Assembly (NCBI GenBank): GCA_035709005.1
Contig: DASTFB010000070.1
Coordinates: forward strand, 5,223 to 69,222
Direction: 5' to 3'
Origin: Candidatus Methylomirabilota bacterium
Lineage (GTDB): Bacteria; Methylomirabilota; Methylomirabilia; Rokubacteriales; CSP1-6
DNA: 64,000 nt
A program made the position numbers and the translations under genes. Below are positions 6,406 to 56,243 of this stretch, piece after piece (the first letter of the stretch is position 1; every line of letters begins with the position of its first letter). The notes below the pieces were generated by a model. The model searched no databases and was not told where the DNA came from. It saw nothing but the letters and a program-made list of their open reading frames with translations.

Positions 6406-6455
6406 GGCTGGATCTCCTTTCGCAGCGGCCGGTAGTATAACACCGTCCCCTCCGA

Positions 6456-7358: not shown

Positions 7359-7474
7359 GACGGCCTCCTTTTGTAGCGGGGTCCGCGAGCCCGGTTCGAC
7401 GCGTGGGTGGCCTGCCCGAGGTGCGTGTGGCTCCGTCTCGTCGTGTCAGCCGTTCGCGTCACTCTGCCCCCCTG

Positions 7475-7879: not shown

Positions 7880-8037
7880 GGTTCCCTCCTCACCGGAACC
7901 CCGGCCTGTAATGCTCCGGTGCTCGCCGGCGTCGTGCCGAGCCACTGCTCATCGGCGTCGCCCGTATGGTCATCGTCGGCGCGCTGCTCCTGCTCGCCGC
8001 CCGCACCTTGAATTGGACGAGTTGGACTCGCCCGTGT

Positions 8038-8140
8038 CACACCTCGCGCGAAATGGGGGGGTCTGGAGGGGGCGCGTCTCGTGCCTCCTCCAGGCTAAGA
8101 ATCAGGTCTGAAGGGGGCCTCTGCCCCCTCTGGCTCGATC
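8038..8140. repeat. family-A GC-rich palindromic repeat element (two GGAGGGGGC-N-GCCCCCTCC-like hairpins plus cacctcgcgcgaaatgg arm)
   Basis: Near-identical element recurs at 17553-17660 and, inverted, at 33650-33720. Here it overlaps and supplies the last ~15 codons and stop of the 8095-9153 gene. Confidence 0.8.
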
Positions 8141-9153
8141 GGTCGCGAGACGGCCCGGCTGAAGCAGCAGTTGGGGACCACGCTGGAGTGCTTGCCCGGC
8201 CCGCCGGCGACCACCACCAGCACGTCCTCCGGCCCGGGGACACGCGGCGGCCGGACATCGTCGTCGCGGAGAGCCATCATCCACGGGGGCCAGTCCTGGG
8301 CCCCCCACATGCCCCCGAGCTTCAGCGTCTTGAGTGGCAGCCGCGCGTGCTCGTACACGAAACGCTGGACGTCGGCTCGTCCCAGGCCCTCGGCGGCGAT
8401 GGTCTGCGCGTGCTCGGGACCCAGGACGACGAGCAGCTGGCTCTGGGCCAGGTACCAGCCCACGTTGGAACCCAGCGTGACGGCGGTGTGGGCGACGGTG
8501 GCCAGGATGCCCGCCGCCGTCGTCGACACGTGGTCGTTGATGTTGTGGGGAGCCTCACCACCATACACCGTGACGACGTCGCCGGCGGCCAACGGTTCCC
8601 ACGGCGAGGCAGCCTCGTTCTCGGCGATGCAGTAACTGAACTTGGCGGGACTGCCCTGGGTCGCCATGTCGTGACGACCCGGCCAGGCGCCACCGACGTT
8701 CATGAGGATCAGGCGGATGGCCCGTCCGATCGTCGCGTTGGCCCGAAAGCCCGGCCCGAAGCAACCGCTGCCGGCGTGCAGGCCGATCTCGCGCGCGTAG
8801 GGTCCGTTGACCACGAGCAGGGGCGCCACCGGATGCGTGGTGGCCTGCACGCCGTAGAGATTGAAGGCCGGATCCAGCATGGCCTCCACGGCGGCCACGA
8901 TGACGGGCAGGTGCTCGGGCCGGCACCCGGCCATCACCGCGTTGACGGCGAGCGCCTGCAGGGTGGCTTCATGCCAGAGCGGCGGCATGGGACCCAATGA
9001 GCGGTCGGCGGGAGCGCCGCCCAGCATGGCCCGCACGCGGTCCTCGGTGGGAGGCACGATAGGCAGCCCATCGCACCAGCCCCGCTCGACGAACGCCTCC
9101 AGCAGCGCCTCGGGCGTGTCGTCGACGTCGAGCGTGGCCGCCGACGGCGCCAT
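8095..9153 (-). CDS. conserved partner protein of the UGSC selenoprotein (uncharacterised; homologous to the C-terminal 450 aa of the fused gene at 53337-55007)
   Basis: 352 aa. Blocks ERGWCDGLPIVPPTEDRVRAMLGG / VNAVMAGCRPEHLPVIVAAV / GSPAKFSYCIAENEAASPWEP align with SRGWSDGFPLVAPTERAVAAMLGG / VNSVMAGCAPEHLPLLIAAV / GSPLKYSLCCAENERESPWEP in the second locus; its ATG overlaps the selenoprotein stop. Confidence 0.7.
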   Translation of the reverse strand: MAPSAATLDVDDTPEALLEAFVERGWCDGLPIVPPTEDRVRAMLGGAPADRSLGPMPPLWHEATLQALAVNAVMAGCRPEHLPVIVAAVEAMLDPAFNLYGVQATTHPVAPLLVVNGPYAREIGLHAGSGCFGPGFRANATIGRAIRLILMNVGGAWPGRHDMATQGSPAKFSYCIAENEAASPWEPLAAGDVVTVYGGEAPHNINDHVSTTAAGILATVAHTAVTLGSNVGWYLAQSQLLVVLGPEHAQTIAAEGLGRADVQRFVYEHARLPLKTLKLGGMWGAQDWPPWMMALRDDDVRPPRVPGPEDVLVVVAGGPGKHSSVVPNCCFSRAVSRPIEPEGAEAPFRPDS

Positions 9154-9683
9154 CAGCGCTCACCGAGCAGGCTGAGCAGCTGCTCCACGGCCTGCTGAGC
9201 GCGGCGGACGATGGCCTCGGGCCGTTCGCCGCCCAGCGGGTGCTCCACGACCAGCAGGGGCAGGCCGGCCACGCCCCGGGCGGCGAGCTGGCGGACGGCG
9301 ACCTCCTGAAACGCGGTGGTGGCGATCAGCGCGGACGCGGTTCCGGCCCTGGCCAGCTCGAGGGCGTCGTGGAGACTCCACGACGTGCAGGACCCTCAGT
9401 CCGCGGAGCCGGCGAAGACGACATCGCAGGCTTTGGCCAGCTCGACCACCAGCTCCGCGGGCGCCGGCGACGAGCAGTTCGCCTTGCGCCGGTGGACGAC
9501 GGCCTTGACGCCGTGCCGCTCGCGCAGGAGGCGACCGAGCTCCGTGACCAGGCGGTCGAAGTTCGGCTTGGTGTTGTCGAGAAAGCCCACGGTGAGGTTG
9601 CCGAAGTCGCCGGGCAGCGGAGGCACGCTCACCCGTTCGCTCGCTTCGACCCCCACTGGACTCAACACCCGGATGCGTGGCAT
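9153..9683 (-). CDS. UGSC-motif selenoprotein (in-frame UGA at 9396-9398 read as selenocysteine; ~176 aa)
   Basis: The ORF-track ORF 9396-9713 stops at a UGA. Reading through gives ...VVFAGSAD-U-GSCTSWSLHDALELARAG...LLGER*, with no further stop for 80 codons until a TGA at 9153-9155 that overlaps the next ATG. AGGAGG SD before the ATG at 9683. Same architecture as the fused paralogue. Confidence 0.7.
9365..9385 (-). promoter_or_regulatory. SECIS-like stem-loop ~10 nt 3' of the UGA (RNA CGUCGUGG-AGUCU-CCACGACG)
   Basis: Perfect 8-bp stem (extendable to 10). Position and size match bacterial SECIS elements; the stem is identical at the second locus while the loop differs. Confidence 0.55.
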
Positions 9684-28240: not shown

Positions 28241-28243
28241 TTA

Positions 28244-28408
28244 TAGGGTGCGGGCACCCGGGCTTCGCCACGCCCGTGCCCCGCCGCGATCACCCGCGGT
28301 GGTGATTCGGTTGCGCTGCGTGCGTCGCGACATCACAGGGTGCGGGCACCCGGGCTTCGCCACGCCCGCACCCCGCCGCGATCACCCGCCACGGTTGCTC
28401 GGTTGCGG
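28244..28408. repeat. family-B repeat, two tandem ~72-bp copies in the imuB-dnaE2 intergenic region
   Basis: agggtgcgggcacccgggcttcgccacgcccgtgccccgccgcgatcacccgc... occurs twice (28244-28315, 28337-28408) with a 21-nt spacer. Confidence 0.7.
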
Positions 28409-28450
28409 GGCGTGCGGCCCGACTTCGGGCGCCACGCCCGTGGCGCGCCG

Positions 28451-29953
28451 TCAGTCGTAGATGCCATCCAGGACCCAGTGGTTGGCCATGCGATCGAGGG
28501 CGAGCCGGCACAGCGTGCCGTCGTCGAGGAGGAGGTCCCACTCGTCGCGAGCCCAGGCGCGGCCGTCCCACCACTCTCCCGAGACTCGCCAGGGCCCGGC
28601 GCACGCGACGACACGCCGGCCCACGCCGGCCCACTGCACGGACGCCGGGTGGTCGGCCGCCGCCACCACCTGCACCCTCACTGGTGGACGGATCCGCCGG
28701 AGGACCACGCTCGATACCGGCGCGGCGCCGGCGCGATCGCCCTCCTCGGTGGGAACGAAAGGCACCAGCGTGACCGGGTCCGGGTGATGGGAATCGACGA
28801 GCCGCGGCGACCCGAAGTTGTCGGGCCCCACCAGCTCGGTCAGATGAGCAACCAGGGCAGCCAGATCGCGCTGGCGCGGCGCCGGGGGCTGTCCTAGCTG
28901 TCCTTGCCCGGGCGCGACCGGCACGACGCGGGCGCTCACCGCCACCGCGGTCACCGCCGCCGCGGGTGGCCGCGCGGCGAGCTCGCAGCGGATGAGCGGG
29001 ACGAGGACCGCGCGCTCACACGCCGGCTGGGCCAGGGCGATCGCGCGCTCGTGCCGCTCGCCTGTGGTGAGCCGGAGGCGGAGATCCAGCCGGTCGGCCC
29101 ACACGTGGGCGGCGCCCAGGCGAGCGGTGAGCCGTTCGAGCACACGATCCAGCACGACGGCCAGCATCTGGAGATCCTCGATTTCCCAGTCGAGGTCCTG
29201 AGCCTCCTCCCAGAACGGTGGGGGGACGTACGGCCGGAACGGATCACGATCGTGCCCGCAAGCGAGATCGTGGAGGCGCAAGCCTTCCTGGCCCAGCCGC
29301 TCCGCCAGCCCCGCGCGCGGCAGCGCCGCCAGCTCTCCCAGCGTCCGCACCCCCCAACGCCCCAGGGTCGCCGCGGTGGTCGCCGGCAGGTCGAGGACCG
29401 CGAGCGGCGCGGTCGCGAGCACCGCCCGTTCACCGCCGGGCGGCACCACGGCGACCCGGCGGCTCGTGGCCCGCACGGCGACTCCGGCGACCGTTCGGCT
29501 GCTCGCGACACCAGCGCGGGCGGCGAGGCCCACCATTCGGGCCTGGCGCACCAGGCGCTCTGCCACGGCGCCGTCGTCACCGAACAGCCGTTGTAGGCCG
29601 GCGACATCGGCATGGACGAGCCCGGGAGCGGTGTCTTCCACACGGGGGGACACGGCGAGCGCGGCTTCGACGAGCGCATGCTGCGCCGACACCAGGGTCT
29701 CCTCGCCGAGCGCTCGGCAGACGAGGTCGGGGCAGCGTGCACGGGCCTCGCTCTCGGTCATCCTCGGCCGCACGCCGGCCTCGCGGGCGATGGCGTTGGC
29801 CTCGACCACCCGCGTCACCGGCGGCGCTCCCCGGACGATCGCCAGGGCGCGCTCGGCCAGCACCGGCTCGCCGCGCTCGGCGGCCGCCGCTGCGAAGAAC
29901 GGCACCCACACGCAGGCGACGCGGCCGCCCGGCGAGCTCACGCCGTCCACCAC
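28451..29953 (-). CDS. imuB: ImuB (Y-family polymerase-like protein of the mutagenesis cassette)
   Basis: 500 aa, ...VACVWVPFFAAAAAER... N-terminus typical of ImuB/DinB-like proteins; sits between imuA and dnaE2. Confidence 0.7.
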   Translation of the reverse strand: MVDGVSSPGGRVACVWVPFFAAAAAERGEPVLAERALAIVRGAPPVTRVVEANAIAREAGVRPRMTESEARARCPDLVCRALGEETLVSAQHALVEAALAVSPRVEDTAPGLVHADVAGLQRLFGDDGAVAERLVRQARMVGLAARAGVASSRTVAGVAVRATSRRVAVVPPGGERAVLATAPLAVLDLPATTAATLGRWGVRTLGELAALPRAGLAERLGQEGLRLHDLACGHDRDPFRPYVPPPFWEEAQDLDWEIEDLQMLAVVLDRVLERLTARLGAAHVWADRLDLRLRLTTGERHERAIALAQPACERAVLVPLIRCELAARPPAAAVTAVAVSARVVPVAPGQGQLGQPPAPRQRDLAALVAHLTELVGPDNFGSPRLVDSHHPDPVTLVPFVPTEEGDRAGAAPVSSVVLRRIRPPVRVQVVAAADHPASVQWAGVGRRVVACAGPWRVSGEWWDGRAWARDEWDLLLDDGTLCRLALDRMANHWVLDGIYD

Positions 29954-30498
29954 CGGGTGACGTCAGAGGGGACGACGCCGCCCAGGGAGCCGCGCCCGCG
30001 GAGCAGGCGCACGGCCGTGCCCACGCGGGCCAGGCGCGTCGGCGCGCCGCGCGGACCGCTCCACTCCAGCGACCGCCGGACGGCCTGGACGGCCAGCGCC
30101 GCGCCGGGACCGGCGATGCGCCGACTCGCCAGGATGAGCAAGGCCGCGCCCGACCGGCGAACGGCCAGCCGCAGTCGGAATGCGAGCGTGAGAGGCAGGC
30201 GCGGCGGACGCTCGCCGACGTCGAGCGCGACGACCGTGAACCCGGGGCACCGCACGAGACGATCAGCCACGCGCAGCGCGACATCGTGACGTCCGCCGCA
30301 ACGCACCCACAGCAGGCGCCGGAGATTCACCCCGGCGCGCGCGGCGGTCGAGGGATCGAAGGCGTGGTCGGTGTCTACCAGCGCGGCCACCGCCCCGCGC
30401 TGCGTGACTTCGCGCAAGCAATCGACGAGCAGGCTCGTGCGTCCGGACGACGGCGCACCGACGATCTCCGTGATCTCGCCCGGCACGATCATGCCCAT
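29938..30498 (-). CDS. imuA: ImuA (RecA-fold SOS cell-division-inhibitor-like protein)
   Basis: ...EITEIVGAPSSGRTSLLV... Walker-A-like ImuA motif; overlaps imuB by 16 nt. Confidence 0.65.
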   Translation of the reverse strand: MGMIVPGEITEIVGAPSSGRTSLLVDCLREVTQRGAVAALVDTDHAFDPSTAARAGVNLRRLLWVRCGGRHDVALRVADRLVRCPGFTVVALDVGERPPRLPLTLAFRLRLAVRRSGAALLILASRRIAGPGAALAVQAVRRSLEWSGPRGAPTRLARVGTAVRLLRGRGSLGGVVPSDVTRWWTA

Positions 30499-43280: not shown

Positions 43281-44189
43281 ATGGCCGTCCTGGGCTTCGT
43301 CGGGCTGGGCGCGATGGGCAGCCGCATGGCCCAGCGCCTGCTGGCCGCCAAGCACGAGGTGGTGGGCTACAACCGCACCCCGGACAAGGCCCGCAGCCTC
43401 GTCGCGGCGGGGCTCCAGCTCGTGCCCACCCCGCGTGCCGCCGCCGAGGCGGCCGAGGTCGTGTTCAGCATGGTCACCGACAACACCGCCCTGCGGGCCG
43501 TGGCGCTGGGCGAGCGCGGCATCGTGGCCGGGCTCAAGCCCGATGCCGTGTACGTCGAGATGAGCACGGTGAGTCCGGCCGTCACCCGCGAGATCGGGGA
43601 GGCGGTCGCCGCCCGCGGCGCGGTGATGCTGGACGCCCCGGTCTCCGGCAGCACCATCACGCTGGAACGGGGCCAGGCCTCGTTCATGGTCGGCGGCGAC
43701 CCCAAGGCGCTGGACCGCGTGCGGCCGTACCTGCTCGACATCGGTACCGCTGTCACCCACGTCGGCCCCCTCGGGCTGGCCAAGACCATGAAGGTGGCGA
43801 CCAATCTCGGGCTCGCCGTCCAGATGCTGGCCTTCAGCGAGGCGGTGTTGCTGGCCGAGAAGTCGGGAATCCCTCGGGACGTCGCGGTGGAGGTGCTGTT
43901 CAAGTCGGTGGTCGCCTCGCCGATGGTGAAGTACCGGGGCCCGTTCGTGGTGGGTCAGATGCCGCGGGAGGCGTGGTTTCCTGTCCCCATGATCCAGAAG
44001 GACGTGCAACTGGCGCTCGATCAGGGCCGCGCCGTCGGCGTGCCCCTGCCCACGACGGCCCTGACCCAGGAATGGCTCACCATGGCGCGTGGCCTGGGGC
44101 TCGGCGACTACGACTTCGGCGTCCTGTTCGACGTGCTGGCCGACCTCAGCGGCCTTCCCCGCAGCGCCAAGCCCTCCGAGCTACCCTAG
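43281..44189 (+). CDS. NAD(P)-dependent oxidoreductase, HIBADH family (third paralogue)
   Basis: MAVLGFVGLGAMGSRMAQRLL, DAPVSGS, GLAKTMKVATN. Confidence 0.85.
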   Translation: MAVLGFVGLGAMGSRMAQRLLAAKHEVVGYNRTPDKARSLVAAGLQLVPTPRAAAEAAEVVFSMVTDNTALRAVALGERGIVAGLKPDAVYVEMSTVSPAVTREIGEAVAARGAVMLDAPVSGSTITLERGQASFMVGGDPKALDRVRPYLLDIGTAVTHVGPLGLAKTMKVATNLGLAVQMLAFSEAVLLAEKSGIPRDVAVEVLFKSVVASPMVKYRGPFVVGQMPREAWFPVPMIQKDVQLALDQGRAVGVPLPTTALTQEWLTMARGLGLGDYDFGVLFDVLADLSGLPRSAKPSELP

Positions 44190-45236
44190 CTTCTCCCGCA
44201 GCCAGTCCGCCACGAGCGGACGGTACTTGTACGGGATGTTGTTGCAGACGTGGTTGCCGTCCGGGTACATGACGAGCTCCGCCTTCGGGGCCTCGGCGGC
44301 CAGGCGCTCGGCGTGCTGATAGGGAATCAGCCGGTCCAGCTTGCCGAAGACCACCAGCAGGGGCTGCCTCACCCGGCCGGCGACACCCTCGAGATCCAGG
44401 CGCGCGGCCCGGGCCCGCGCGTCGGTCTGGTCGCGGGCGCCCGAGTGATAGGTGAAGGTCTCCCGCGTGATGGGCGGCAGATCGTCCCACAGCGGCGCGA
44501 AGCCGTACGGGCCGCCCAGGGCGGCGACCGCCCGCAAGCGGTCCTCGAACGCCGCTGCCCGCGGGGCATAGTACCCGCCCAGGCTCACGCCGGCGGCGCC
44601 GATACGCTCGAGGTCCAGGTCGCGACGGCCCTTGACCGCGTCCAGCATGGCGCTGACCGCGACCTCGTAGTCGTGACGGATGTGCGTGCGGTAGCCCGTC
44701 TCACCCTGGCCCGGGCCCTCCATCGTGAGCGTGGCCATGCCGCGGGCGAGGAACACGTTCTCCCAGTTGAAGAACTCCTCCTTGGCCGAGTCCAGCCCGG
44801 GGATCAGCAGCACGAGAGGGGGCCGCGCGGCAGCGGGCGGGCGGCGAAGGTTGCCGACCATGACGGCGCCGTCGAAGCCGACCTCCAGGCGCTCGGCGCC
44901 GGGGTCCAGGTGGCGGTGGGCCGCGTAGAGGCTCGAGACGGCGCGGTCGGCAGCCGCGCGGTGTCGCGCAGGATCGACCATCCACACGAACTTGGCGAAG
45001 TGATAGCAGAGCGCAGCCCGGACCCAGGCCTCGCCGGCCGTCCGCGTCCGCCCTCTGACCTCGGCCTCCCGCGCCAGGCCGGCGTGCATGTCCCCGATCT
45101 GGCACCACGCCGGCAGCCACTGGTCCCAGCGCTCGAGCCCGGCGGTCGTCGCGACGAAGTCGTTGTAGTCGACGCCCTGGGTGACGAAGCGCGGGGCCCA
45201 GTGCTGCAGCGCCGCCTGGATGCGCGCGTCAGGCAT
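44181..45236 (-). CDS. alpha/beta-hydrolase (FrsA-like esterase family)
   Basis: GVSLGGY nucleophile elbow, GNHVCNN near the C-terminus; 60-70% identical by eye to 46526-47581. Confidence 0.75.
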   Translation of the reverse strand: MPDARIQAALQHWAPRFVTQGVDYNDFVATTAGLERWDQWLPAWCQIGDMHAGLAREAEVRGRTRTAGEAWVRAALCYHFAKFVWMVDPARHRAAADRAVSSLYAAHRHLDPGAERLEVGFDGAVMVGNLRRPPAAARPPLVLLIPGLDSAKEEFFNWENVFLARGMATLTMEGPGQGETGYRTHIRHDYEVAVSAMLDAVKGRRDLDLERIGAAGVSLGGYYAPRAAAFEDRLRAVAALGGPYGFAPLWDDLPPITRETFTYHSGARDQTDARARAARLDLEGVAGRVRQPLLVVFGKLDRLIPYQHAERLAAEAPKAELVMYPDGNHVCNNIPYKYRPLVADWLREKLG

Positions 45237-46533
45237 CGGCCTCTCCCTGGGCCGCCCGCCAGGGACGGCCGAAGCGGTCTTGATAGACGAAGTCGTCCAG
45301 CGGCCGGGGATTCCGGGGCGGGCGTTCCGCGGGCACGCCGAAGGGCATGACGCCGATCAGATCCCACGCTCGGGGACAATCGATGAGCGTCTTCACCTGT
45401 TCCTCGACCCAGTGTGTGACCAGAGTCGTCCCCAGGCCCAGTCCGTGGGCCATCACCGCCATGTTCTGAGCGGCCAGGCCGCCGGCGTGCATGTGAGTGG
45501 CCTCGCCGTGGATGTGGGGTCCGCCTCTGGTAGGGTCGCTGATGAGCGCGATCGCCAGCGGGACTGCTCGCCAGTCGGGATGCTCGCCGGCGCTGCCGCG
45601 GTAGGCCGGCACCCAGTGCGCCGAGATCTCCACGGACTCGCGGGCCAGGTCGCCCAGGCGGGCCAGCCGGGCGCGGTCGCGCAGCAGGACGTAGCGCACC
45701 GGCTGGAAGTTGCCCGCCGAGGGCGCCCACTGGCCCGCCCGCAAGATCTCGACGACGCTGGACATCGGCACCGGCTCGTCGCGGAACCGGGTGACCCACC
45801 GAACGCCGGTGACCGTCTCCAGCAACTCGGGCACCCGGCCGTCGCTCCCACCGTCGGCGGCCAGCGCGGCCGGGGCGGGGGCGCGGTACCGCTCCTCGGC
45901 CACGAGCTCGGCGAGCGGCAGCCGCGTGAGCGAGGCGGCCAGCACTTTGGGGTTGGTGCGGCGCAGATCGGGCCAGCCCACGCCCATCACGCCGATGGTG
46001 TCCCAGGAAAAGGGCACGTCGAGCAGCCGCTTGAGCTTCTCCTGAGAGAAGTGGCTGTACATCACCAGCGCCATTCCGTAGGCGCGGGCGGCCAGCGCCA
46101 GGTTCTCCGCCGCCGCCGCGGCGGCGAGATGATGATTCCAGTTGTTGTGGATGTGGGTGGGCCCCGCGCCAGGATCCGCGCAGACGGCGATGCAGAAGGG
46201 CGTCGCCGTCCAGTGCTGAACGTAGCCGCGCAGACCGGCCGGGCGGAAGAGACCTTCCCAGTGATTGGAGATGGCCTTCGACTCCCGGGTGAGGGCGAAC
46301 AGCCGGCGCTTGAGGTCGGGATCGTCCAGGACGATGAGGCGCACCGGATCGCTGTCCGCGGCCGTCCAGCCCCAGCGGGCGGCGTCCAGCACGCCGGCCC
46401 GCGTGGGGCCGGCGACGGGGCGCCGCAGGAACGTCCGGAAGGTGCGCCGGGTGAGCAGCCCGGCCCGCACGTCGGGCCGGGGGTCCAGCCCGACGTGGGG
46501 CGAGGCCAGCAGGAGCGAGGGATCCTCAGGCAA
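45229..46533 (-). CDS. tandem-nitroreductase-domain protein
   Basis: Two nitroreductase-like halves (...LLASPHVGL... / ...SAGNFQPVRYVLL...), 434 aa. Confidence 0.7.
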   Translation of the reverse strand: MPEDPSLLLASPHVGLDPRPDVRAGLLTRRTFRTFLRRPVAGPTRAGVLDAARWGWTAADSDPVRLIVLDDPDLKRRLFALTRESKAISNHWEGLFRPAGLRGYVQHWTATPFCIAVCADPGAGPTHIHNNWNHHLAAAAAAENLALAARAYGMALVMYSHFSQEKLKRLLDVPFSWDTIGVMGVGWPDLRRTNPKVLAASLTRLPLAELVAEERYRAPAPAALAADGGSDGRVPELLETVTGVRWVTRFRDEPVPMSSVVEILRAGQWAPSAGNFQPVRYVLLRDRARLARLGDLARESVEISAHWVPAYRGSAGEHPDWRAVPLAIALISDPTRGGPHIHGEATHMHAGGLAAQNMAVMAHGLGLGTTLVTHWVEEQVKTLIDCPRAWDLIGVMPFGVPAERPPRNPRPLDDFVYQDRFGRPWRAAQGEADA

Positions 46534-47581
46534 GGTGCTCGGCCATGAAATCCGCGACCAGCGGCCGGTACTTGTAAATGATGTTGTTGCAGACGTGGTT
46601 GCCCTCGGGGTAGCACACCCACTGCTTGGGACCCTGGGCGGCCTCGTACGTGCGATACGCCTCGGCGGGCGGGATCAGATTGTCCAGCTCGCCGTGGACG
46701 ACCAGCAGCGGCGCCGTGATGTTCTTGGCGACGTCGCGGAGCGTGGCCCCCTTCGACTTGAGCCGCACGTCGGCCTCGTCCTTGGCCCCCCAGATGTGAC
46801 ACCACCGCTGCAGATGGAACTCGCTGGCCAGCCGGCGATCCTCCAGGCTGTGCAGGCCGCCGCACGAGGCCGCCGCGCGCAGGCGATGCTCGAAGGCGGC
46901 GCAGCGCGGGGCCAGGTAACCGCCCAGGCTCACCCCGCAGATGCCGACGCGGGTGCCGTCGACGTCGGCGCGGGTGAGCAGCCAGTCGATGGCCGCGGTG
47001 GCCGTCACCTCGAAGTCCACCCGCATCTTCATGGCAAACCACGTCTCGCCCTGCCCGGGACCGTCGAGCGTCAGGGTCGCCAGGCCTCGGCTCAGGAAGA
47101 AGCGCTCGAACGTGGCGTGCTCCTCCTTCGCCGAGTCCAGGCCGGAGAGGAACAGCACGACCGGGGGCCGGGCCACGCCGCGCGGCCGGCGCAGGTAGGC
47201 GGGCATGGTGATCCCCTCGAGCGGAACCTGCACGCGCTCGCCGGGGGGATCGAGGGCCGCCAGCGCCCGCCCGTAGCACTCCACGCGCTTGCGGTGGCCG
47301 GCCGTGTATTCGTCCAGGTCGTGCACCCAGCAGAAGACGGCGAAGTGATAGGCGATGGCCGCCCGATAGTAGGCCTCGCCCGCGGTGACGGTCCGGCCTC
47401 GGCCCGCCGCCTCCAGGGCCAGTTCTTCGTGCTTGCGGCCCAGGCCCATCCACGCGTCGTACCACTGCGCCCACCGCTCCAGCCCCTCGACCGTCCACTG
47501 GTAGTCGTTCATGTCGACGCCGTTGTTGACGATGCGGGGCTTCCAGCTCGTGATCACCTGCGTGACGACTGCGTCGGGCAT
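46526..47581 (-). CDS. alpha/beta-hydrolase (FrsA-like), paralogue of 44181-45236
   Basis: GVSLGGY, GNHVCNNIIYKYRPLVADFMAEHL (cf. GNHVCNNIPYKYRPLVADWLREKL). Confidence 0.75.
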   Translation of the reverse strand: MPDAVVTQVITSWKPRIVNNGVDMNDYQWTVEGLERWAQWYDAWMGLGRKHEELALEAAGRGRTVTAGEAYYRAAIAYHFAVFCWVHDLDEYTAGHRKRVECYGRALAALDPPGERVQVPLEGITMPAYLRRPRGVARPPVVLFLSGLDSAKEEHATFERFFLSRGLATLTLDGPGQGETWFAMKMRVDFEVTATAAIDWLLTRADVDGTRVGICGVSLGGYLAPRCAAFEHRLRAAASCGGLHSLEDRRLASEFHLQRWCHIWGAKDEADVRLKSKGATLRDVAKNITAPLLVVHGELDNLIPPAEAYRTYEAAQGPKQWVCYPEGNHVCNNIIYKYRPLVADFMAEHLA

Positions 47582-47620: not shown

Positions 47621-48550
47621 TCATTGGCTCCGGCGCAGGCGGGGATCGTAGGCGTCGCGCACGCCGTCGCCGAGCAGGTTCACCCCCAGCACCGTGATGA
47701 AGATGGCCAGCCCGGGGAAGACCGACGTCCACCACGACGGCGTCATGTACGGCCGCGCCTCGTTGAGCATCAGCCCCCAGGTCGGGACACTGGGCGGCAC
47801 CCCGAGGCCGAGGAACGAGAGGGAGGCCTCGATGAGGATGATGGTGGCCAGCGAGAACGTGCTCACCACGCTGAGCGAGGCCACCGTGTTGGGCAGGATG
47901 TGTCGCACCAGGATGCGTCCGTGGGAGACGCCCAGGGCCCGGGCCCCCGTCACGAAGTCCCGCTCGCGCAGGGAGAGCACCTCGTTGCGGATCACCCGGC
48001 AGTAGTGGATCCACCGGTTCAGGCAGATGACCAGGATCAGGATGATGAGGTTCTGACCGAACAGGGCCATGACGACCAGGGCCAGCAACACGAACGGGAT
48101 GGTGAGGAAGACCTCCACCATCTTCATGATGACCAGGTCGACTCGCGCCCCGTAGAAGCCGGACAGCAGGCCCAGCGCCGTCCCCACCAGCCCGGAGATG
48201 ATGAGCGCGATGACACCCACCAGCACCGAGATCCGGGCGCCGTACAACACCCGGCTCAGGATGTCGCGCCCGAGGTGGTCGGTGCCCAGCAGATTGGCCG
48301 CGCTGCCCCCGGTCAGCCACGCCGGCGGCGTGAGCCGCCGGGCCAGGTCCTGGGCGGCCGGTGGCGTCGGCGCCACCAGCGGCGCCAGCACGGCGGCGAT
48401 CAGGACCGCGCCGATCAGGACGCCGCCCACCGCGCAGCGCAGGAGGCCCGGGCGCAGATACCAGGCGGGACGATGACGGACGACGACGTCCTCGGCCCGC
48501 CAGGTGGCGACGCCGGCCGTGGTGGTGACGGCGGCGTCGGCGTCAGTCAT
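47621..48550 (-). CDS. ABC transporter permease (DppC/OppC-like)
   Basis: C-terminal ...LGVNLLGDGVRDAYDPRL...; internal ATG at 48550 chosen (MTDAD...) because the 5' part of the ORF-track ORF overlaps the upstream permease. Confidence 0.8.
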   Translation of the reverse strand: MTDADAAVTTTAGVATWRAEDVVVRHRPAWYLRPGLLRCAVGGVLIGAVLIAAVLAPLVAPTPPAAQDLARRLTPPAWLTGGSAANLLGTDHLGRDILSRVLYGARISVLVGVIALIISGLVGTALGLLSGFYGARVDLVIMKMVEVFLTIPFVLLALVVMALFGQNLIILILVICLNRWIHYCRVIRNEVLSLRERDFVTGARALGVSHGRILVRHILPNTVASLSVVSTFSLATIILIEASLSFLGLGVPPSVPTWGLMLNEARPYMTPSWWTSVFPGLAIFITVLGVNLLGDGVRDAYDPRLRRSQ

Positions 48551-49547
48551 AGCGCACCCGCGGGTCGATCCAGGCCGCCAGGATGTCCACGGCCGTGTTG
48601 ACCACGACGACGAGCACGATGAACACCAGGACGATGCCCTGCACGAGCGGGTAGTCGCGGTTGGCCACGGCCTGCACGGCCAGCCGCCCGATCCCCGGCC
48701 AGGCGAAGATCGTCTCGATGATGACGGAGCCCGAGAGCAGGAACACGAACAGCAGGCTCCAGGCCCCCAGCATCGGCATGAGGGCGTTCCACACGGCATG
48801 CCGGGTGATCACCGCCACCTCGCGCAGACCCTTGGCCCGCGCCGTGCGCACGTAGTCCTCCTGCATGACCTCCAGGAGGTTGGAGCGCATGAGGCGGCTC
48901 TGAAAGGCGATGCCCGGCCCCGACAGGGCCGCCGCGGGCAGGATCAGATGTCGGACCGCGTCCCAGAAGGCGGCGCCGTTCAGCGTAAGGGCGCTGTCGA
49001 GCAGGTGCAAGCCGGTGATCGGCGTGAGCGACACCGTCTCCGACAGGCGGCCGGCCACGGGCAGCAGCTGCAAGCCACCGCCGATCAGGAGGATCAGGAG
49101 CAGCGCGAACCAGAACGCCGGCATGGCGACACCGCAGACCGCCACCGCCATCAGCGCCTGGTCGAGCAGGCTGTGGGCGCGGGCCCCCGCCACGATACCG
49201 AGCAGCAACGAGATCACGATGACGAAGAGCAAGGCCAGCCCACCCAGCTCCAGGGTGGCCGGGGCCCGGGCCGCGATGAGGCCAGCCACTGGCTCGTCGA
49301 AGTAGAGGGAGCGCCCCAGGTCCCCCCGGACCAGGTTGCCGACGTAAGCCAGGAACTGCACGGTCACCGGCCGGTCCAGCCCCCACTGCCGGCGCGCCTC
49401 GGCGCGCTCCGCGTCGGTGGCATCGGGCGGTACCAGCTGGTCCGACGGGTCTCCCGGGGCCAGATGCAACAGGGCGAAGATGAGCACCGTGATGAGGACC
49501 ACGTTGACCAGGCTGGCCCAGAGCCGGGTGGCGAGGAAGCTCGACAT
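48543..49547 (-). CDS. ABC transporter permease (DppB/OppB-like)
   Basis: ...QFLAYVGNLVRGDLGRSLYF...IIETIFAWPGIG... binding-protein-dependent transport signature. Confidence 0.85.
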   Translation of the reverse strand: MSSFLATRLWASLVNVVLITVLIFALLHLAPGDPSDQLVPPDATDAERAEARRQWGLDRPVTVQFLAYVGNLVRGDLGRSLYFDEPVAGLIAARAPATLELGGLALLFVIVISLLLGIVAGARAHSLLDQALMAVAVCGVAMPAFWFALLLILLIGGGLQLLPVAGRLSETVSLTPITGLHLLDSALTLNGAAFWDAVRHLILPAAALSGPGIAFQSRLMRSNLLEVMQEDYVRTARAKGLREVAVITRHAVWNALMPMLGAWSLLFVFLLSGSVIIETIFAWPGIGRLAVQAVANRDYPLVQGIVLVFIVLVVVVNTAVDILAAWIDPRVRYD

Positions 49548-49550
49548 TAT

Positions 49551-49707
49551 TCATCGGAGGGGGCGAGACGCCCCCTCCGATACCTCCCCGATTCGCGCCA
49601 GGCGCGACAGCGCGCGTGTCTCACCCGCACCTGTTCTCATCGGAGGGGGCGAGACGCCCCCTCCAATGCCTCCCCGGTTCGCGCGAGCTGCGACCGCGCG
49701 CGTGTCT
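49551..49707. repeat. family-A repeat variant, two tandem ~78-bp units in the SBP-permease intergenic region
   Basis: tcatcggagggggcgagacgccccctccgatacctccccgattcgcgccaggcgcgacagcgcgcgtgtctcacc repeated twice; contains the GGAGGGGGC-gagac-GCCCCCTCC hairpin. Confidence 0.8.
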
Positions 49708-49728
49708 CACCGGCGGATCCGGACCCGC

Positions 49729-51270
49729 TTACGCGAGGTCCATCTTGCCGAACCAGACGTACTCACCGGCGTTCGGGATCCCGGCCGGGATCACCACGTG
49801 CTTGCGCGCCGCTACCGTGTACTGCGGGTTGTAGAGCGGTACCGCCGGGCTTTCCTCCTGGAGCAGCCGCATGAGCTGCCGATTCAGGGTCTGGCGCTTC
49901 TTGGCGTCGCCCTCCACTTCCTGCTGGTCGAACAGCGCGTCCGCGGCCGGGATGCTGTGCTTGGAGCGCCGGTCGCGACCCGTCCGGAAGTAGGTCTGGA
50001 TGAACGCCGAGGCGTCCTCGGCCACGTTGCCGTAGGAGATGAAGTACATCGGCATCTCGCTGGCGAACCACATGCGCCGGAACACGCCGGCCTCCACCGA
50101 CTTGATGTTCAGGCGCACGCCGATCTTCGCCAGCTGCTCGCCCATGGCCTGGGCCATGGGCCGGTATTCGTTGTAGGAGCCGAAGTCGTAGAAGTCGATG
50201 TCGACGCCGTTGGGATAGCCGCCAGCCGCCAGCAGTTTCCTGGCCCGCGCCGGGTCGTAGGGCACCGGCTTGAGGTCCGGGTCGTACGTCATCACCTGGG
50301 TCGGCCCCACCATCTGGCTGAGCCGGTAACCGCGTCCCTCAAGCACGGTCTTGAGGATCGTGTCCATGTCGACGCCGGCGTGGATGGCCTGGCGCACTTC
50401 TTTCTTCTGGAGCGGCGGCACGATGGGGTTCATGAACAGCATGTGGATGCGGGCGGCCCGCACGGCGTGGAGCCGGATGTCCGGGCTGTTTTCCAGCTTG
50501 CCCACGTCGAAGGCGGGCACCTGGGCCACGGCGTCCACCTGGCCGGCCCGCAGGGCGGTGATGCGCGCAGTGGAGTCCTGGATCGGGCGGTAGATGATGC
50601 GGTCGATCTTGGCCTTGGGCCCCCAGTAGTCGGGGTTCTTCTCCATCACCAGGCGCTCGTCGCGCGCATACTCCGCGAACCTGTAAGGGCCGGTACCCAG
50701 CATCTTCTTGTGCGCCTCGTCGAAGCCGACCTTCTCGCCCAGCGCCCGGCTCATGATGGGTGGCCGGGACTGGAGGTAGGAGAGCAGCCCGGGCACCGGA
50801 TCGCCGCAATCGCAGACCACCGTGAGCTTGTCGCGAACGGTGATCTTGTCGATCATCACCACGTTGGCTTTCTGGCGGAAGGCGCTCTTCTCCTTGGCCA
50901 CCGCCTCGAGGGAGTACTTCACGTCCTCGGCGGTCAGCGGCGAGCCGTCGTGGAAGCGCACGCCGTCGCGGACCGTGAAGATCCAGCGGCGGGCCTTGTC
51001 CTCCACGGTCCAGGACTCGGCCAGGACCGGCTCGAACACGCGCTTGGCGTAGTCGAAGCGGATGAGCGGCTCCTGGATGTGGTTGTCGAGCGTCTCGAAG
51101 ACGGCGTGGTTCACGAAGTAAGGATTGAGCTGGCCGATGTCCTCGTTCTTGCCGTACACGAGCTGCTTGCGGCCGGTCTGCGCATGGACCGGGTGCCGCA
51201 CGGCGAGCACGAGGGCGGCGGCGCCGGCGCCGCGCTCGAGGAACTGGCGCCTGGAGATCCTGGTCGTCAT
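49729..51270 (-). CDS. ABC transporter substrate-binding protein, family 5 (peptide/nickel), Tat signal
   Basis: MTTRISRRQFLERGAGAAALVLAV twin-arginine signal; 513 aa. Confidence 0.85.
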   Translation of the reverse strand: MTTRISRRQFLERGAGAAALVLAVRHPVHAQTGRKQLVYGKNEDIGQLNPYFVNHAVFETLDNHIQEPLIRFDYAKRVFEPVLAESWTVEDKARRWIFTVRDGVRFHDGSPLTAEDVKYSLEAVAKEKSAFRQKANVVMIDKITVRDKLTVVCDCGDPVPGLLSYLQSRPPIMSRALGEKVGFDEAHKKMLGTGPYRFAEYARDERLVMEKNPDYWGPKAKIDRIIYRPIQDSTARITALRAGQVDAVAQVPAFDVGKLENSPDIRLHAVRAARIHMLFMNPIVPPLQKKEVRQAIHAGVDMDTILKTVLEGRGYRLSQMVGPTQVMTYDPDLKPVPYDPARARKLLAAGGYPNGVDIDFYDFGSYNEYRPMAQAMGEQLAKIGVRLNIKSVEAGVFRRMWFASEMPMYFISYGNVAEDASAFIQTYFRTGRDRRSKHSIPAADALFDQQEVEGDAKKRQTLNRQLMRLLQEESPAVPLYNPQYTVAARKHVVIPAGIPNAGEYVWFGKMDLA

Positions 51271-52040: not shown

Positions 52041-52472
52041 TCAAGAGGCGGATGGCAGCCCGCTACCGCCCAGCGCCTTCCGAATCGCGCCGATCAGGGA
52101 CTCCTCATCGAACGGCTTTCGGAGGTACCCGACGGCTCCCGCCCGGCGGGCCCGCTCGCGCGTGGGCGCATCATCGTGGGCGGTGATGAAGACGACAGGG
52201 ATCTGTGCTCCCGCGGCGACGAGCTGATCGTTCAACTCGAACCCGCTGAGCCCTCCGAGGTGGACATCGAGCACGAGGCAATCGGCGGCGCCGGGGTGCT
52301 CGGATTCCAGGAAGTCTTCCGCCGAGGAGAACACCCCCACGGTGAACCCGCTGGCCAGGAGCAGGCGTTGCAGCGCGCGCAGGAGTGAGGCGTCGTCGTC
52401 GATCACGTACACCAGGGCTGATCGCCCGGGATCGGACGACGACGCGCGACCGGAGCGGATGTTGGTGGCCAC
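52041..52472 (-). CDS. response-regulator receiver domain protein (possibly the C-terminal remnant of a hybrid kinase)
   Basis: ...LVYVIDDDASLLRAL...LVLDVHLGGLSGFEL...LRKPF... Confidence 0.55.
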   Translation of the reverse strand: MATNIRSGRASSSDPGRSALVYVIDDDASLLRALQRLLLASGFTVGVFSSAEDFLESEHPGAADCLVLDVHLGGLSGFELNDQLVAAGAQIPVVFITAHDDAPTRERARRAGAVGYLRKPFDEESLIGAIRKALGGSGLPSAS

Positions 52473-53316
52473 CGGCGGTCTTTCCTTACTCTCGGGTATC
52501 CCGAGCCTCGGTACAACCCAACTGTAGGCCTCGCGGTGATCGCCTGGCTATGGGGCTTTCGTCCCATGCGCCCGGGGCAACTCCAGGCGCTGGGCAGCAG
52601 GCGGGCCGCCTGAGCGTTGGCGAGGACGGCCGCCAGCGGCTGGTTGATCTCGTGCGTCAGTGACGCCGCCAGCTCGCCGAGCGTGGTGACGCGTAGGGCG
52701 TGGCTCAGCGCCTCGCGCTGCCGCCCGGCTTCCTCCTCGCTCTCCAGCACAGCCGTCTCGGCGCGCCGGCGGGGGCCAGGGCGTTCCCGAAGACCTCGGC
52801 CTGGAGCTGGAGCCGGTGAACGAGCTCGTCGGGCCACTGGCGCTCGGCGCGGACCGTGCTGAATGCGAGGACGCCCACGGCGGCCGCGCCGACGCGCAAG
52901 GGCATCGCCGCGAGGGATCGGGTACCGAGCTCGGCGAACCTGCGGCGGTCACTGTGCGCCTCGACGGGGAGGTCCTCCCGACGCGAGAAGCGGATCACGT
53001 CCCCCTGGAGCAGCCTCGACAGCATCCAGGGAAATTCGCTCAACTTGACCGACGTCGGGATCGGCGCGATGTCGGGGGCGGTCGCCGAGTGCATGACCAG
53101 GGCGACGTCTCGCTGGACGCCCAGCTCGGCCAGGGCCGCCCGATCGAGTCCGAGATGCGCCACGATACGGGCCAACCCCGCTTCTTCCAGGATGCCTTCA
53201 ACGAGTTCGGCGTGCGGATCACGGCTCCCGCCTTCGAATCGCAGCCGGATCAGGCGGTCGTCGTCCCCACGTTCAGATGGTTCGCGGCCCCGGCCACGCC
53301 CCCCCGGGACGGCCAC
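52403..53316 (-). pseudogene. GAF-HisKA sensor histidine kinase gene fragments in two frames, no HATPase_c domain (frameshifted / degraded)
   Basis: GAF-like segment (GTG 53316, SD GGAGGAAG; ...IRFSRREDLPVEA...AAMPLRVGAAAVGVLAF...) ends in a poly-C tract (ggcccccgcc near 52775); HisKA ...LAASLTHEINQPLAAVLANAQAA... continues in the +1 frame and stops without an ATP-binding domain. Confidence 0.5.
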
Positions 53317-53336: not shown

Positions 53337-55007
53337 TTACTCGTCCACGGACATCGTCACCGGCTCGCCGCCGCCGTAGAAATACGCGCCGCGTCCAGCG
53401 GCGCCGCCGACCACGGCGATGTCGTAACAGGCCGGATCCTCCACGACCGGCAGCGGCAGGGCCGGATGCTCGCGCAGCCAGCCGAGCTCGGGATGGGACA
53501 CCGCCATCGCCTTGGGCTCCTTGGTGAGCATCAGCGTCCGGAACGGCAGCCGCGCCGCCCGGTAGAGGGCCTCCTGGATCTGGCGACGGCCCCAGCCGGC
53601 TTTGGCGAAGACGTGGGCGTGCTCGGGACAGATGAAGAGCGTGTTGTGCTCTTTCTCCTCGGTCTTGTAGCGCGGATCGGCGCGCCGGCCGATGAGCCAG
53701 AGGCCGGTGCCGACCTGAGCCACGTTCGCGGCGGCGGTGGCGAAGACCTCGATGAGGGCCTCGGGCGTCGTGGATTGAAAGTCGTGGAGCTCGCACATCC
53801 CGTAGACGAAATGCACCGTCACCGTGCTCGCCTCGGTCGGGAAGCCGCGCGCCACGTGGTACGGCTCCCACGGGCTCTCACGCTCGTTCTCGGCGCAGCA
53901 GAGGCTGTACTTGAGGGGTGAGCCGATGGTGTCCATGTCGCTCACGCCGACATAGGTGTGGCCCACGTTCATCATGACGAGCCGCACGGCGCGGCCCAGC
54001 ACGGTGTTGGCGGCCGAGGGCGCGCCGGGGCCCAGGGCGCACATGCCCGCGTTGAGGCCGGCCCGCCGCCCCTGGGGACCGTTGACGAGCACGAGCGGGG
54101 CGTGGGGCCCCGTCGACATCGCCTTGTTGCGGATGTACATCTTCGGCTCGGCCAGGCACCGCACGGCCGCGATCAACAACGGCAGGTGCTCGGGCGCGCA
54201 GCCGGCCATGACTGAATTGACGGCCAGCTTCTCGACGGTGGCGATCCCGAACCCCGGCTCGAGGACGGCGACCTGGTCGCCGGGGGCGCGCCGGGTGCCC
54301 CCGAGCATGGCCGCCACCGCGCGCTCGGTGGGAGCGACCAGCGGGAACCCGTCGGACCAGCCTCGGGACAAGAAATCCCGGTTCATGGCCTCCCACGCGG
54401 CCAGGGCGTCCTCGCCTTCGTAGGCTAACCGGGTTTCGGCGGGCTTCCGCTCGACCGCGGCGGGCTCGGCGACGGGCGTGGTGAGGCCGCGCAGCACCTG
54501 CTCGAAGGCCGCGTCCACCATCCGGTGGACGGCTTCAGGCGTCTGGTTGGTGAAGGGCAGCGGCACCACGGCCAGCGGCAGCCCGGGCAGCCCCAGCGTC
54601 GCCGCCGTGCCGTGGGCGTCGTGGACGAAGTGCTGGGCCGTGAAGATGACGGTCGGGATCCCCCGCCGCTCCAGCTCGATCATGTCGTGGACACCCCACG
54701 ACGTGCAGGACCCTCAGTCGTTGGTGGTGCCCACCACGGCGTTGACCTCGGCGGCGATGCGGTCGGCGTCCTCGGCGGTGCAGTGGCGCATGAGCCAGCC
54801 CACCGAGCCCGTGTAGCGCTTGAACTTCACCCCGGGGAACTTCTCGCCCAGCAGCTGCTCGGTCCGGTCCAGGGCGAAGTCGCCGCCGGCCTTCATGTTC
54901 CAGTAGAGCCCGACGGTCACCCCCGTGAAGTCGCGCAACCGCGGCGCCGGCTTCACGGAGAACTCCACCGCCTTCGCCAGGGGACTGAGTATTTCGAGTC
55001 GTGCCAT
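53337..55007 (-). CDS. fused UGSC-motif selenoprotein (N-terminal ~97-aa domain + Sec + ~458-aa partner domain; UGA at 54714-54716 read as Sec; 556 aa)
   Basis: ORF 54714-55007 ends ...AVVGTTND at a UGA. The next codons GSCTSWGVHD run in-frame into the M of ORF 53337-54683 (MIELERRGIPTV...). Co-linear with the two separate genes at 8095-9713. AAGGAGGG SD before the ATG at 55007. Confidence 0.75.
54683..54703 (-). promoter_or_regulatory. SECIS-like stem-loop 3' of the UGA (RNA CGUCGUGG-GGUGU-CCACGACG)
   Basis: Same 8-bp stem as at 9365-9385, different loop, same spacing from the UGA. Confidence 0.55.
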
Positions 55008-55043
55008 GGAGTGCCTCCCTCCTTGGAGCCGACCGGCGCTAAA

Positions 55044-56243
55044 TTAGATAATTACCTTCTTGGCGCGCAGCGCGGCGATCTCGTCCTTCGAGTAGCCGTG
55101 CTCGCCCAGCACCTGGTCGGTGTGCTCGCCCTGCAGCGGGGCCGGGCTGCGCACGCCGACGCGCATGCCGGAGAACGTGAGCGGCGTGCTGACTACCGGG
55201 ATGTCGCCCAGCTTGGGGTGGGCGACGCGGGCGATCAGGCCCGCTGCCGCCGTCTGGGGATCGTCCATGACCTGGTCCACCGTGTTGACCGGCGTGGCCG
55301 GCACGCCGGCCGTCTCCAGGAGCTTGAGCAGCGGCTCCCGGTCTTGCCGGGCGATCGCCTCCTCCAGGGCGGACTCCAGCTCGCGCCGATGCTTGACCCG
55401 TTCGATGTTGGTCGCGAAGCGGGGGTCCGTCGCCATCGATTCGAGCCCCAGGGCCAGGGCCAGTCGCTGCCAGAAGCGGTCGTTGGCCCCGGCGATGAAG
55501 ATCCACTGCCCGTCGCGGCACCGGAAGTTGCGATAGGGCGACAGTGAGGGATGCGAGGAGCCCAGCGGTCTGGGCACTGCGCCCGTGAGCAGATAGCCTT
55601 CCGCGTGGTAGTTGAGCAGATTCACGGCCGTGGCCAGCAGCGAGCCGTCGACGCGCTGGCCGAGCCCCGTGCGCTCGCGGTGCAGGAGCGCGTTCACGAT
55701 GCCGTAGGCGCAGAAGATGCCGGTGGTCAGGTCCAGGAAGGACACGCCGCAGCGCACGGGCGAGCCGTCCGGCTCCCCCGTGATCGACATGATGCCGCTG
55801 AAGGCTTGCATGAGGGCCTCGTAGCCCGCCCCCTCGGCTCGCGGCCCCGTGCGGCCAAAGGCGGAGATCGAGCAATACACCAGCCGTGGGTTGAGCGCGG
55901 CCAGGGTGTCGTAGCCGACGCCGAACGACTCCATGGCGCCGGTCCGGAAATTCTCGATCAGCACGTCGGCCCGTCCAACCAGGCGCTTGAGCACCTCGAC
56001 ACCCTCGGGCGTCTTCAAGTCGAGCGTCATGTCGCGCTTGTTGCGGTTGATGACGAGATAGGCCGCCGACTCCCCCTCCTTGTGCGGTGGCCACGTGCGC
56101 GACTCGTCCCCGCTCGCGGTGTCCTCGACCTTGACGACGTCGGCGCCGAGGTCGGCGAGCAGCATGGCGCAGAAGGGACCGGCCAGCACGCGCGAGAGAT
56201 CGAGCACCCGGACGCCGGTGAGGGACAGGGGGGGAGCGGTCAT
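55044..56243 (-). CDS. family III CoA-transferase (CaiB/BaiF-like)
   Basis: MTAPPLSLTGVRVLDLSRVLAGPFCAMLLADLGADVVKVE is the CaiB/BaiF N-terminal signature; ends 36 nt before the selenoprotein start. Confidence 0.85.
   Translation of the reverse strand: MTAPPLSLTGVRVLDLSRVLAGPFCAMLLADLGADVVKVEDTASGDESRTWPPHKEGESAAYLVINRNKRDMTLDLKTPEGVEVLKRLVGRADVLIENFRTGAMESFGVGYDTLAALNPRLVYCSISAFGRTGPRAEGAGYEALMQAFSGIMSITGEPDGSPVRCGVSFLDLTTGIFCAYGIVNALLHRERTGLGQRVDGSLLATAVNLLNYHAEGYLLTGAVPRPLGSSHPSLSPYRNFRCRDGQWIFIAGANDRFWQRLALALGLESMATDPRFATNIERVKHRRELESALEEAIARQDREPLLKLLETAGVPATPVNTVDQVMDDPQTAAAGLIARVAHPKLGDIPVVSTPLTFSGMRVGVRSPAPLQGEHTDQVLGEHGYSKDEIAALRAKKVII

Follow-up and report, generated by a model that had tools for sequence, protein, structure and literature searches.

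We analysed a 64,000-nucleotide stretch of contig DASTFB010000070.1 from a Candidatus Methylomirabilota bacterium (hereafter, the window). Positions 53337-55007 (locus 2) contain two consecutive open reading frames (ORFs) on the minus strand, which very probably form one selenoprotein gene. The first ORF (54714-55007) ends with the residues AVVGTTND, followed by a TGA at 54716-54714. In the same frame, ten codons (GSCTSWGVHD) connect this TGA with ATG 54683, the start of a 448-aa ORF (53337-54683), and the frame is closed by TAA 53339-53337. With the TGA decoded, the translation is 556 residues long and has selenocysteine (Sec, U) at position 98. The G+C content of third codon positions (GC3) is 0.93-0.95 on either side of the UGA. 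A strong Shine-Dalgarno sequence could be read in front of ATG 55007, where translation starts (Table 1), and direct inspection of the sequence in front of ATG 54683 revealed no comparable one.

The predicted product consists of an N-terminal module of the UGSC family, a linker and a C-terminal partner domain. The linker corresponds to the point where a related locus in the window (locus 1) divides into two genes. There, the UGSC gene has an in-frame TGA within AD-U-GSCTSW, its stop codon and the ATG of the partner gene share one base (TGATG), and the two modules are adjacent, translationally coupled genes. The first-pass annotation had taken the loci for two copies of one system, which was borne out by pairwise alignment: the UGSC parts are 34% identical (E 3e-23), and the partner parts 41% (E 1e-61). 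The 33-nt motif TGAGGnnnnTGYnCGTCGTGGnnnnnCCACGAC occurs twice in the window, at loci 1 and 2, and was absent from 100 shuffles. Since locus 1 contains the same two modules as neighbouring genes, the fused and the split form seem to be interchangeable configurations of a single two-module unit. Another Methylomirabilota locus (L076) has a motif of the locus-1 type (FAGSAD-U-GSCTSWSLHD), yet it is fused, which suggests recurrent fusion and fission.

Table 1. Coordinates of the features at loci 1 and 2, in window positions
Feature	Positions	Strand	Details
Complete UGSC-partner fusion gene, as proposed	53337..55007	minus	556 codons including one UGA (putative Sec), plus TAA stop
In-frame UGA, residue 98	54714..54716	minus	read as selenocysteine in the proposed gene; motif D-U-G-S-C-T-S-W
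Read-through junction peptide (locus 2), predicted			AVVGTTND-U-GSCTSWGVHDMIELER
SECIS-like hairpin	54684..54702	minus	GUCGUGG-GGUGU-CCACGAC; stem begins 11 nt past the UGA
Shine-Dalgarno AAGGAGGGAGG	55014..55024	minus	before start ATG 55007; read from the sequence
UGSC module, residues 1 to ~178	54474..55007	minus	PF24696, 122 bits; NF041046, 107.6 bits; model of Cys homologue P0244
Inter-domain linker, residues ~179-200	54408..54473	minus	low pLDDT at 179-197 of homologue P0244
Partner domain, residues ~201-556	53340..54407	minus	motifs GWSDGxP, NAVMAGC, LGPG..N..GRA.RL.MN.G, C.AENE..SPW
CoA-transferase family III gene	55044..56240	minus	PF02515, 451 bits; 3' end 36 nt upstream of the fusion gene
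Locus 1, stand-alone UGSC selenoprotein gene, as proposed	9153..9683	minus	176 codons; UGA 9396-9398; hairpin 9366-9384
Locus 1, separate partner gene	8095..9153	minus	352 aa
SECIS, selenocysteine insertion sequence; Cys, cysteine; pLDDT, predicted local distance difference test; CoA, coenzyme A.

Domain content and probable decoding of the in-frame UGA

The locus-2 protein was scored with hidden Markov models (HMMs) after placing C at the position of U. PF24696 ("UGSC family") covered residues 5-176, across the TGA, with 122.3 bits (cut-off 25). NF041046 ("UGSC family (seleno)protein") matched residues 29-175 with 107.6 bits, under its equivalog cut-off of 125; the locus-1 protein reached 125.7 bits, just over this value. 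The UGSC domain straddles the TGA, and therefore neither ORF alone contains a complete domain.

A search of 50%-identity cluster representatives yielded 4,581 relatives. Those of full length (537-584 aa) carry DCGSCTSW, DCGGCTLW, DCGACTSW, DCGNCTSW and similar motifs exactly at the D-TGA-GSCTSW site, and a minority have a degenerate motif without Cys. The 97-aa ORF of locus 2 aligns with the N-terminal part of the Cys forms and ends one residue short of their Cys. The Met encoded by ATG 54683 is an internal, conserved residue in these forms too. The Cys homologue P0244 is ~50% identical to the fusion protein in an end-to-end alignment. RefSeq contains Cys forms of 560-570 aa from Paraburkholderia, Phytohabitans, Roseixanthobacter, Nonomuraea and Streptosporangium under the name "UGSC family (seleno)protein".

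We then compared 80 loci of GTDB species representatives, picked by partner-specific patterns and ranked against a fusion protein. In ~60 of them, a TGA at the site is followed by 426-476 more in-frame codons. The site is TGC in four loci, and a few have the TGA followed by ~80-107 codons, as in the split arrangement of locus 1. Sec forms were present in Dehalococcoidia/SAR202, Betaproteobacteria, Acidobacteriota, Desulfobacterota, Entotheonella, Methylomirabilota and one cultured Robertmurraya. A Chloroflexi metagenome-assembled genome (MAG; L038) carries three tandem fusion paralogues of the Sec type (4205, 6274 and 7968), each with its own UGA and hairpin. In the window, TGA is the normal stop codon of 19 of the 35 genes; the code is therefore not reassigned, and the recoding of UGA would be local and site-specific.

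The reading of the two ORFs as a single read-through selenoprotein, put forward in the first-pass annotation, is thus supported by a PF24696 domain that spans the TGA, by Cys at the UGA site in homologues, and by the TGA and the long downstream frame being kept across phyla. Judged from these sequence comparisons, it is highly probable that ORFs 54714-55007 and 53337-54683 constitute one Sec-decoded gene.

Partner domain, predicted fold and proposed function

We searched the 80 loci and the window with an HMM built for each module, and detected 102 partner domains. For 98 of these, a UGSC domain lies directly upstream on the same strand, in 83 cases within the same read-through frame, although the loci were picked by partner patterns but ranked against a fusion protein, which biases these figures towards fusions. 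Two of the four exceptions are at contig ends. In the loci sampled, UGSC and the partner almost always occur together, as a near-obligate two-module unit. The 129 representatives of the nearest 50%-identity clusters comprise 75 post-UGA fragments, 24 full fusions and 30 partner-only proteins. The predicted domain boundary of the fusion coincides with the gene boundary at locus 1. Among other arrangements, the gene order is reversed in L063 (10676-12276), with the partner upstream of UGSC, and P0290, P0302, P0320 and P0354 (713-741 aa) are exceptions to the coupling that contain two tandem partner domains without UGSC.

The partner family is large: 7,943 of 8,000 candidates from a word-indexed search were retained at E < 1e-5. 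The partner domain had no Pfam or NCBIfam match, even at E <= 1 over 33 members, and no weak family recurred consistently among these; the partner and UGSC profiles likewise found no match among the PDB sequences. Residue conservation was calculated over the 129 representatives in P0244 numbering. D224, R343, E377 and W384 are almost invariant, and R346, D361, K370 and E379 are 87-92% conserved. C275 of the NAVMAGC motif (87%), N378 (80%), H467 (77%) and C374 (73%) follow, and C327 is not conserved. From this conservation, an enzyme pocket that takes an anionic substrate seems likelier than an Fe-S site.

Structures were predicted for the Cys homologue P0244 (pLDDT 88) and for the locus-1 partner (pLDDT 72). 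In the P0244 model, the UGSC module is predicted to be a flavodoxin-like alpha/beta domain, in which U-x-x-C is placed where a strand passes into a helix, at the N-terminus of the latter. Its fold neighbours are flavodoxin-like and CheY-like. A thioredoxin-like fold had been assumed for UGSC in the literature (PMC2398784); the AlphaFold model of the Cys homologue is flavodoxin-like instead.

Weak HMM matches of 14 UGSC domains pointed recurrently to the reductase selenoproteins of the GrdB type: TIGR01917 (GrdB) was matched by eight domains, GrdF by five, TIGR01918 by four, GrdH by three and PrdB by one, and every other weak match was a singleton. Alignment of UGSC with a SAR202 GrdB by hhalign gave E 1.9e-4 over the segment ..VAT-U-GTC......EIERLGIP. 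PF07355 (GrdB family) had no match in the fusion protein, and the resemblance is local only. In SAR202 contigs (L082-L085, 1-12224), a UGSC fusion is found amid three GrdB/GrdE pairs, GrdA and GrdC/D. In this selenoprotein island, all the Sec genes (GrdA, GrdB and UGSC) have been cut at the UGA by gene callers.

From the motif, the weak homology and the gene context, we tentatively propose a functional model. The U...C pair would be a redox-active selenol/thiol centre, as is the UxxC of the GrdB/PrdB reductase selenoproteins. The C-terminal partner of ~360 residues would be the substrate-binding or catalytic half, in which the near-invariant D, two R, K, E-N-E, W and H are found, and would probably act on a carboxylate or a CoA-linked small molecule. 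The Sec module would deliver a nucleophile or reducing equivalents to the partner. Downstream of locus 1, on the same strand, the region 2362-7945 encodes a 4HBT thioesterase, a 3-hydroxyisobutyrate-dehydrogenase-like protein, a GYD-domain protein, a 578-aa pyridine-nucleotide-disulfide oxidoreductase and an aldehyde:ferredoxin oxidoreductase (AOR). This gene run is a possible operon with locus 1, hinting at an acid or aldehyde substrate.

Several results weigh against such a model. The similarity between UGSC and GrdB is under every curated cut-off (16-17 bits vs 600-800) and involves only ~35 residues. The partner showed no similarity to GrdE (hhalign, probability 0.4%) or to the N-terminal domain of GrdB, and no gene with PF09338, the domain of the GrdE/PrdA pyruvoyl proprotein partner, is present in the window. 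The neighbourhoods of the fusion loci are heterogeneous: outside the SAR202 island, the neighbours vary among short-chain dehydrogenases/reductases, TctC-type receptors, MmgE/PrpD, acyl-CoA dehydrogenases, family III CoA-transferases and enoyl-CoA hydratases. The partner Cys residues are not universal, as seen from the above frequencies of C275 and C374, and some fusions lack both UGSC cysteines; not every member therefore requires redox chemistry. We found no correlation between the loss of Cys275 of the partner and the loss of the UGSC Cys among the 129 representatives.

The alternative that survives best accepts the Sec fusion, and assigns UGSC the role of a redox-sensing or regulatory switch, or of a dedicated thiol-disulfide reductant for the partner, instead of a GrdB-like nucleophile. 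The flavodoxin-like and CheY-like fold neighbours would fit this role, as would the occurrence of members in aerobes (e.g., Paraburkholderia and Nonomuraea) and the fusions that have lost U/C and the second Cys and still keep the conserved residues of the partner. A thiol-oxidoreductase function was also assumed in PMC2398784. On the other hand, Sec is strongly favoured over Cys in the sampled fusions, which is typical of catalytic Sec, and the weak likeness to the Sec region of GrdB/GrdF/PrdB is recurrent. We regard a switch or dedicated reductant as possible, but rather doubtful.

Extending the model in which the partner binds the substrate and U-x-x-C attacks or reduces it, UGSC and its partner might be an unrecognised, very widespread two-module selenoenzyme. 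Its Sec module would be derived from, or sister to, that of GrdB/PrdB, and the partner would have a fold without a solved relative. In soil and marine heterotrophs (Methylomirabilota, SAR202/Dehalococcoidia, Betaproteobacteria and Acidobacteriota), the enzyme might reductively cleave or convert small organic acids, osmolytes or CoA esters. This extended proposal is speculative, and we consider it unlikely in its full form; if true, the two-module UGSC enzyme would be one of nature's most abundant selenoenzymes, and would have gone largely unnoticed because its gene is split during gene calling.

The hairpin and the status of the UGA

If the UGA were a true stop, the locus would yield a 97-aa peptide and a separate 448-aa protein from ATG 54683, as publicly annotated. 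Gene callers return exactly these products, and more genes of the window end in TGA than in any other stop codon. A tRNA scan and domain searches found no selA, selB, selD or tRNA-Sec within the 64-kb window, which speaks for a stop and against Sec decoding. However, each product would be a half-domain of one fold. The start at ATG 54683 has no Shine-Dalgarno sequence, and its Met is internal and conserved in the Cys forms, which are continuous across the UGA site. In ~60 species the frame is kept across the UGA, and the hairpin that follows it is specific to UGA-containing genes (see below). Termination at this codon is thus very unlikely, and decoding of the UGA as Sec remains our preferred interpretation.

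The locus-2 hairpin has a 7-bp stem (GUCGUGG/CCACGAC) and a 5-nt loop containing G/U. Numbered from the U of the UGA, the stem comprises columns 15-21 and 27-33. In an alignment of 56 distinct Sec genes, 97.4% of the cells were paired, and sliding the 3' partner by 1-3 columns reduced this value to 19-55%. None of 500 shuffles reached the observed pairing score. The first-pass annotation had described the stems of the two loci as identical and their loops as different. The 7-bp stem is indeed shared and the loops are GGUGU and AGUCU, but an eighth pair (C...G) is present at locus 1 alone, with C opposite A at locus 2.

We attempted to separate selection on the RNA from selection on the peptide. 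The codons that encode S-W...H-D, UC(N)-UGG...CA(Y)-GA(Y), dictate four of the seven pairs, so the hairpin might be a mere by-product of the codons for T-S-W-x-x-H-D. Six of the seven pairs are still present in some Cys genes, which would agree with this explanation. The codon constraint also weakens the argument of the first-pass annotation, which had deduced selection from a conserved stem with divergent loops and neighbouring codons, because the four pairs follow from the conserved residues. As a control at constant peptide, we collected 51 distinct Cys genes from a metagenome scan for D-C-G-S-C-T-S-W-x-x-H-D and compared them with 25 Sec genes having the same peptide. The three pairs at synonymous sites were kept in the Sec genes and were near random in the Cys genes: pair 15-33 was formed in 88% of the Sec vs 47% of the Cys genes, pair 18-30 in 100% vs 55%, and pair 21-27 in 100% vs 59%. 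All seven pairs were intact in 21 of the 25 Sec genes and in 7 of the 51 Cys genes (Fisher p = 3e-9, a value inflated by the lack of phylogenetic independence of the two sets, although the effect is still large). Moreover, 55 of the 56 Sec genes have C in column 27, where a variable codon has its third position, and compensatory GC-to-AU double changes are found at pairs 15-33 and 18-30 (e.g., L039, L047 and L061). A hairpin without an RNA function is therefore most improbable. The high synonymous-site pairing in Sec genes and the low pairing in Cys genes indicate that the hairpin is maintained at the RNA level specifically where the UGA is present. The earlier conclusion of selection is thereby upheld, through this control rather than its original argument.

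By analogy with the established bacterial mechanism, we infer that the hairpin is a SECIS element. It would recruit SelB with Sec-tRNA(Sec) and GTP, upon which the ribosome would insert selenocysteine at codon 98 and continue through the partner domain. Two results count against this role, besides the caveat on the p value: the folding energy of the locus-2 sequence is unexceptional for DNA of 70% G+C (z = +0.65 for the single sequence), and an Rfam scan of the window matched no family. The hairpin is thus supported by sequence comparison and not by thermodynamics. A subgroup of loci with the motif U-G-[SA]-C-T-K-[FY]-L-[VA]-Y-[ND] (CTKF/CTKY; L032, L042, L053, L055, L058, L067 and L068) lacks the GUCGUGG/CCACGAC hairpin. 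These genes have another, longer-range stem, ACAAAGUxCCUCG...CGAGGACUUU, which is probably an alternative SECIS.

An assembly or sequencing error, or a pseudogene, which the metagenomic origin of the assembly might suggest, is practically dismissed by an identical 448-aa product in an NCBI MAG record, by >100 clusters of 76-99% identical homologues that each begin at the same post-UGA Met, by the conservation of the TGA across phyla, and by the equally high GC3 on both sides of the UGA.

Gene surroundings and relation to known families

The CoA-transferase family III gene that lies upstream probably shares a transcript with the fusion gene, and such a neighbour is also found at the orthologous locus L081. 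Immediately downstream of the fusion gene, the region 52406-53222 (minus strand) looks like a decayed sensor kinase, with a GAF domain and a HisKA fragment in different frames and no HATPase domain; a response-regulator gene (52044-52472) comes after it. Farther away, an imuA-imuB-dnaE2-type mutagenesis cassette occupies 24548-30498 (minus strand). It consists of a RecA-like gene (29941-30498), an IMS/ImuB-like gene (28454-29953) and a gene for a 1231-aa DNA polymerase III alpha subunit (24548-28240), which contains an intein splicing domain at residues 776-885. At 44184-47581 (minus strand), two paralogous FrsA-like alpha/beta hydrolases of 351 aa each stand on either side of a double-domain nitroreductase, and this group adjoins an ABC (ATP-binding cassette) peptide-type transporter (47624-51270).

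The UGSC-containing selenoprotein family of Zhang and Gladyshev has been in the literature since 2007-2008, where it was described as a family of unknown function that abounds in aquatic metagenomes (PMC2398784, PMC1976440, PMC13188914). A "UGSC/Unknown_1" fusion was reported in 2008 from Global Ocean Sampling data (PMC2398784, Fig. S1A), and Unknown_1 is probably the same as our partner domain. Since the family, its Sec/Cys dichotomy and the fusion with an unknown domain have been published, and Cys fusions are named in RefSeq, the gene described here is a new, mis-annotated member of a known family. The test of the SECIS at synonymous sites, the near-obligate coupling to a large Pfam-less domain, the flavodoxin-like prediction and the link to GrdB are incremental leads, and current understanding is not overturned by them.

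The annotation, by contrast, calls for correction. Each of the 120 closest database proteins is a "hypothetical protein" of 446-449 aa that starts at the post-UGA Met, and on related contigs the callers list a 97-aa UGSC fragment beside a 448-451-aa protein. The public record for this gene and hundreds of homologues thus consists of a 97-aa fragment and a 446-451-aa "hypothetical protein", which should be one selenoprotein. Such truncated annotation of Sec forms (75 of the 129 nearest 50%-identity clusters look truncated) skews domain databases as well as the counting of selenoproteomes. For nearly 20 years, UGSC has ranked with the most abundant selenoprotein families of the environment without a known function, and the coupling to the partner, the GrdB-like Sec module, and the Cys forms in cultured Paraburkholderia and actinomycetes offer handles for biochemistry.

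Comparison with known systems places the gene as follows. The minimal SECIS of E. coli fdhF requires a spacing of 11 nt from the UGA to the stem. The hairpin described here shares with this bacterial SECIS its position in the coding region directly 3' of the UGA, the stem at 11 nt and a small apical loop with G/U; unlike it, the hairpin is family-specific in sequence, and no Rfam model matched it. With GrdB, GrdF, GrdH and PrdB (PF07355), UGSC has in common a UxxC after a beta-strand, followed by ...E-[IL]-E-[RK]-x-G-[IV]-P. In contrast to the GrdB-type proteins, the fusion lacks the GrdB N-terminal domain and its partner is unrelated to GrdE/PrdA, and, unlike in the grd systems, no GrdA or GrdC/D genes are near loci 1 and 2. 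The closest relationship is to the UGSC family itself (NF041046, PF24696), with the same domain, the U-G-S-C motif and Cys homologues; the family models span ~147-172 aa, whereas the domain here is the N-terminal third of a 556-aa protein. As in UGSC/Unknown_1 and in the 560-570-aa Cys forms of RefSeq, UGSC is followed by a conserved domain of unknown function, and the Cys forms of Paraburkholderia, Phytohabitans and Nonomuraea are full-length relatives of P0244. Unlike these, the fusion gene of the window is the Sec form, split into 97 aa and 448 aa in the public MAG annotation.

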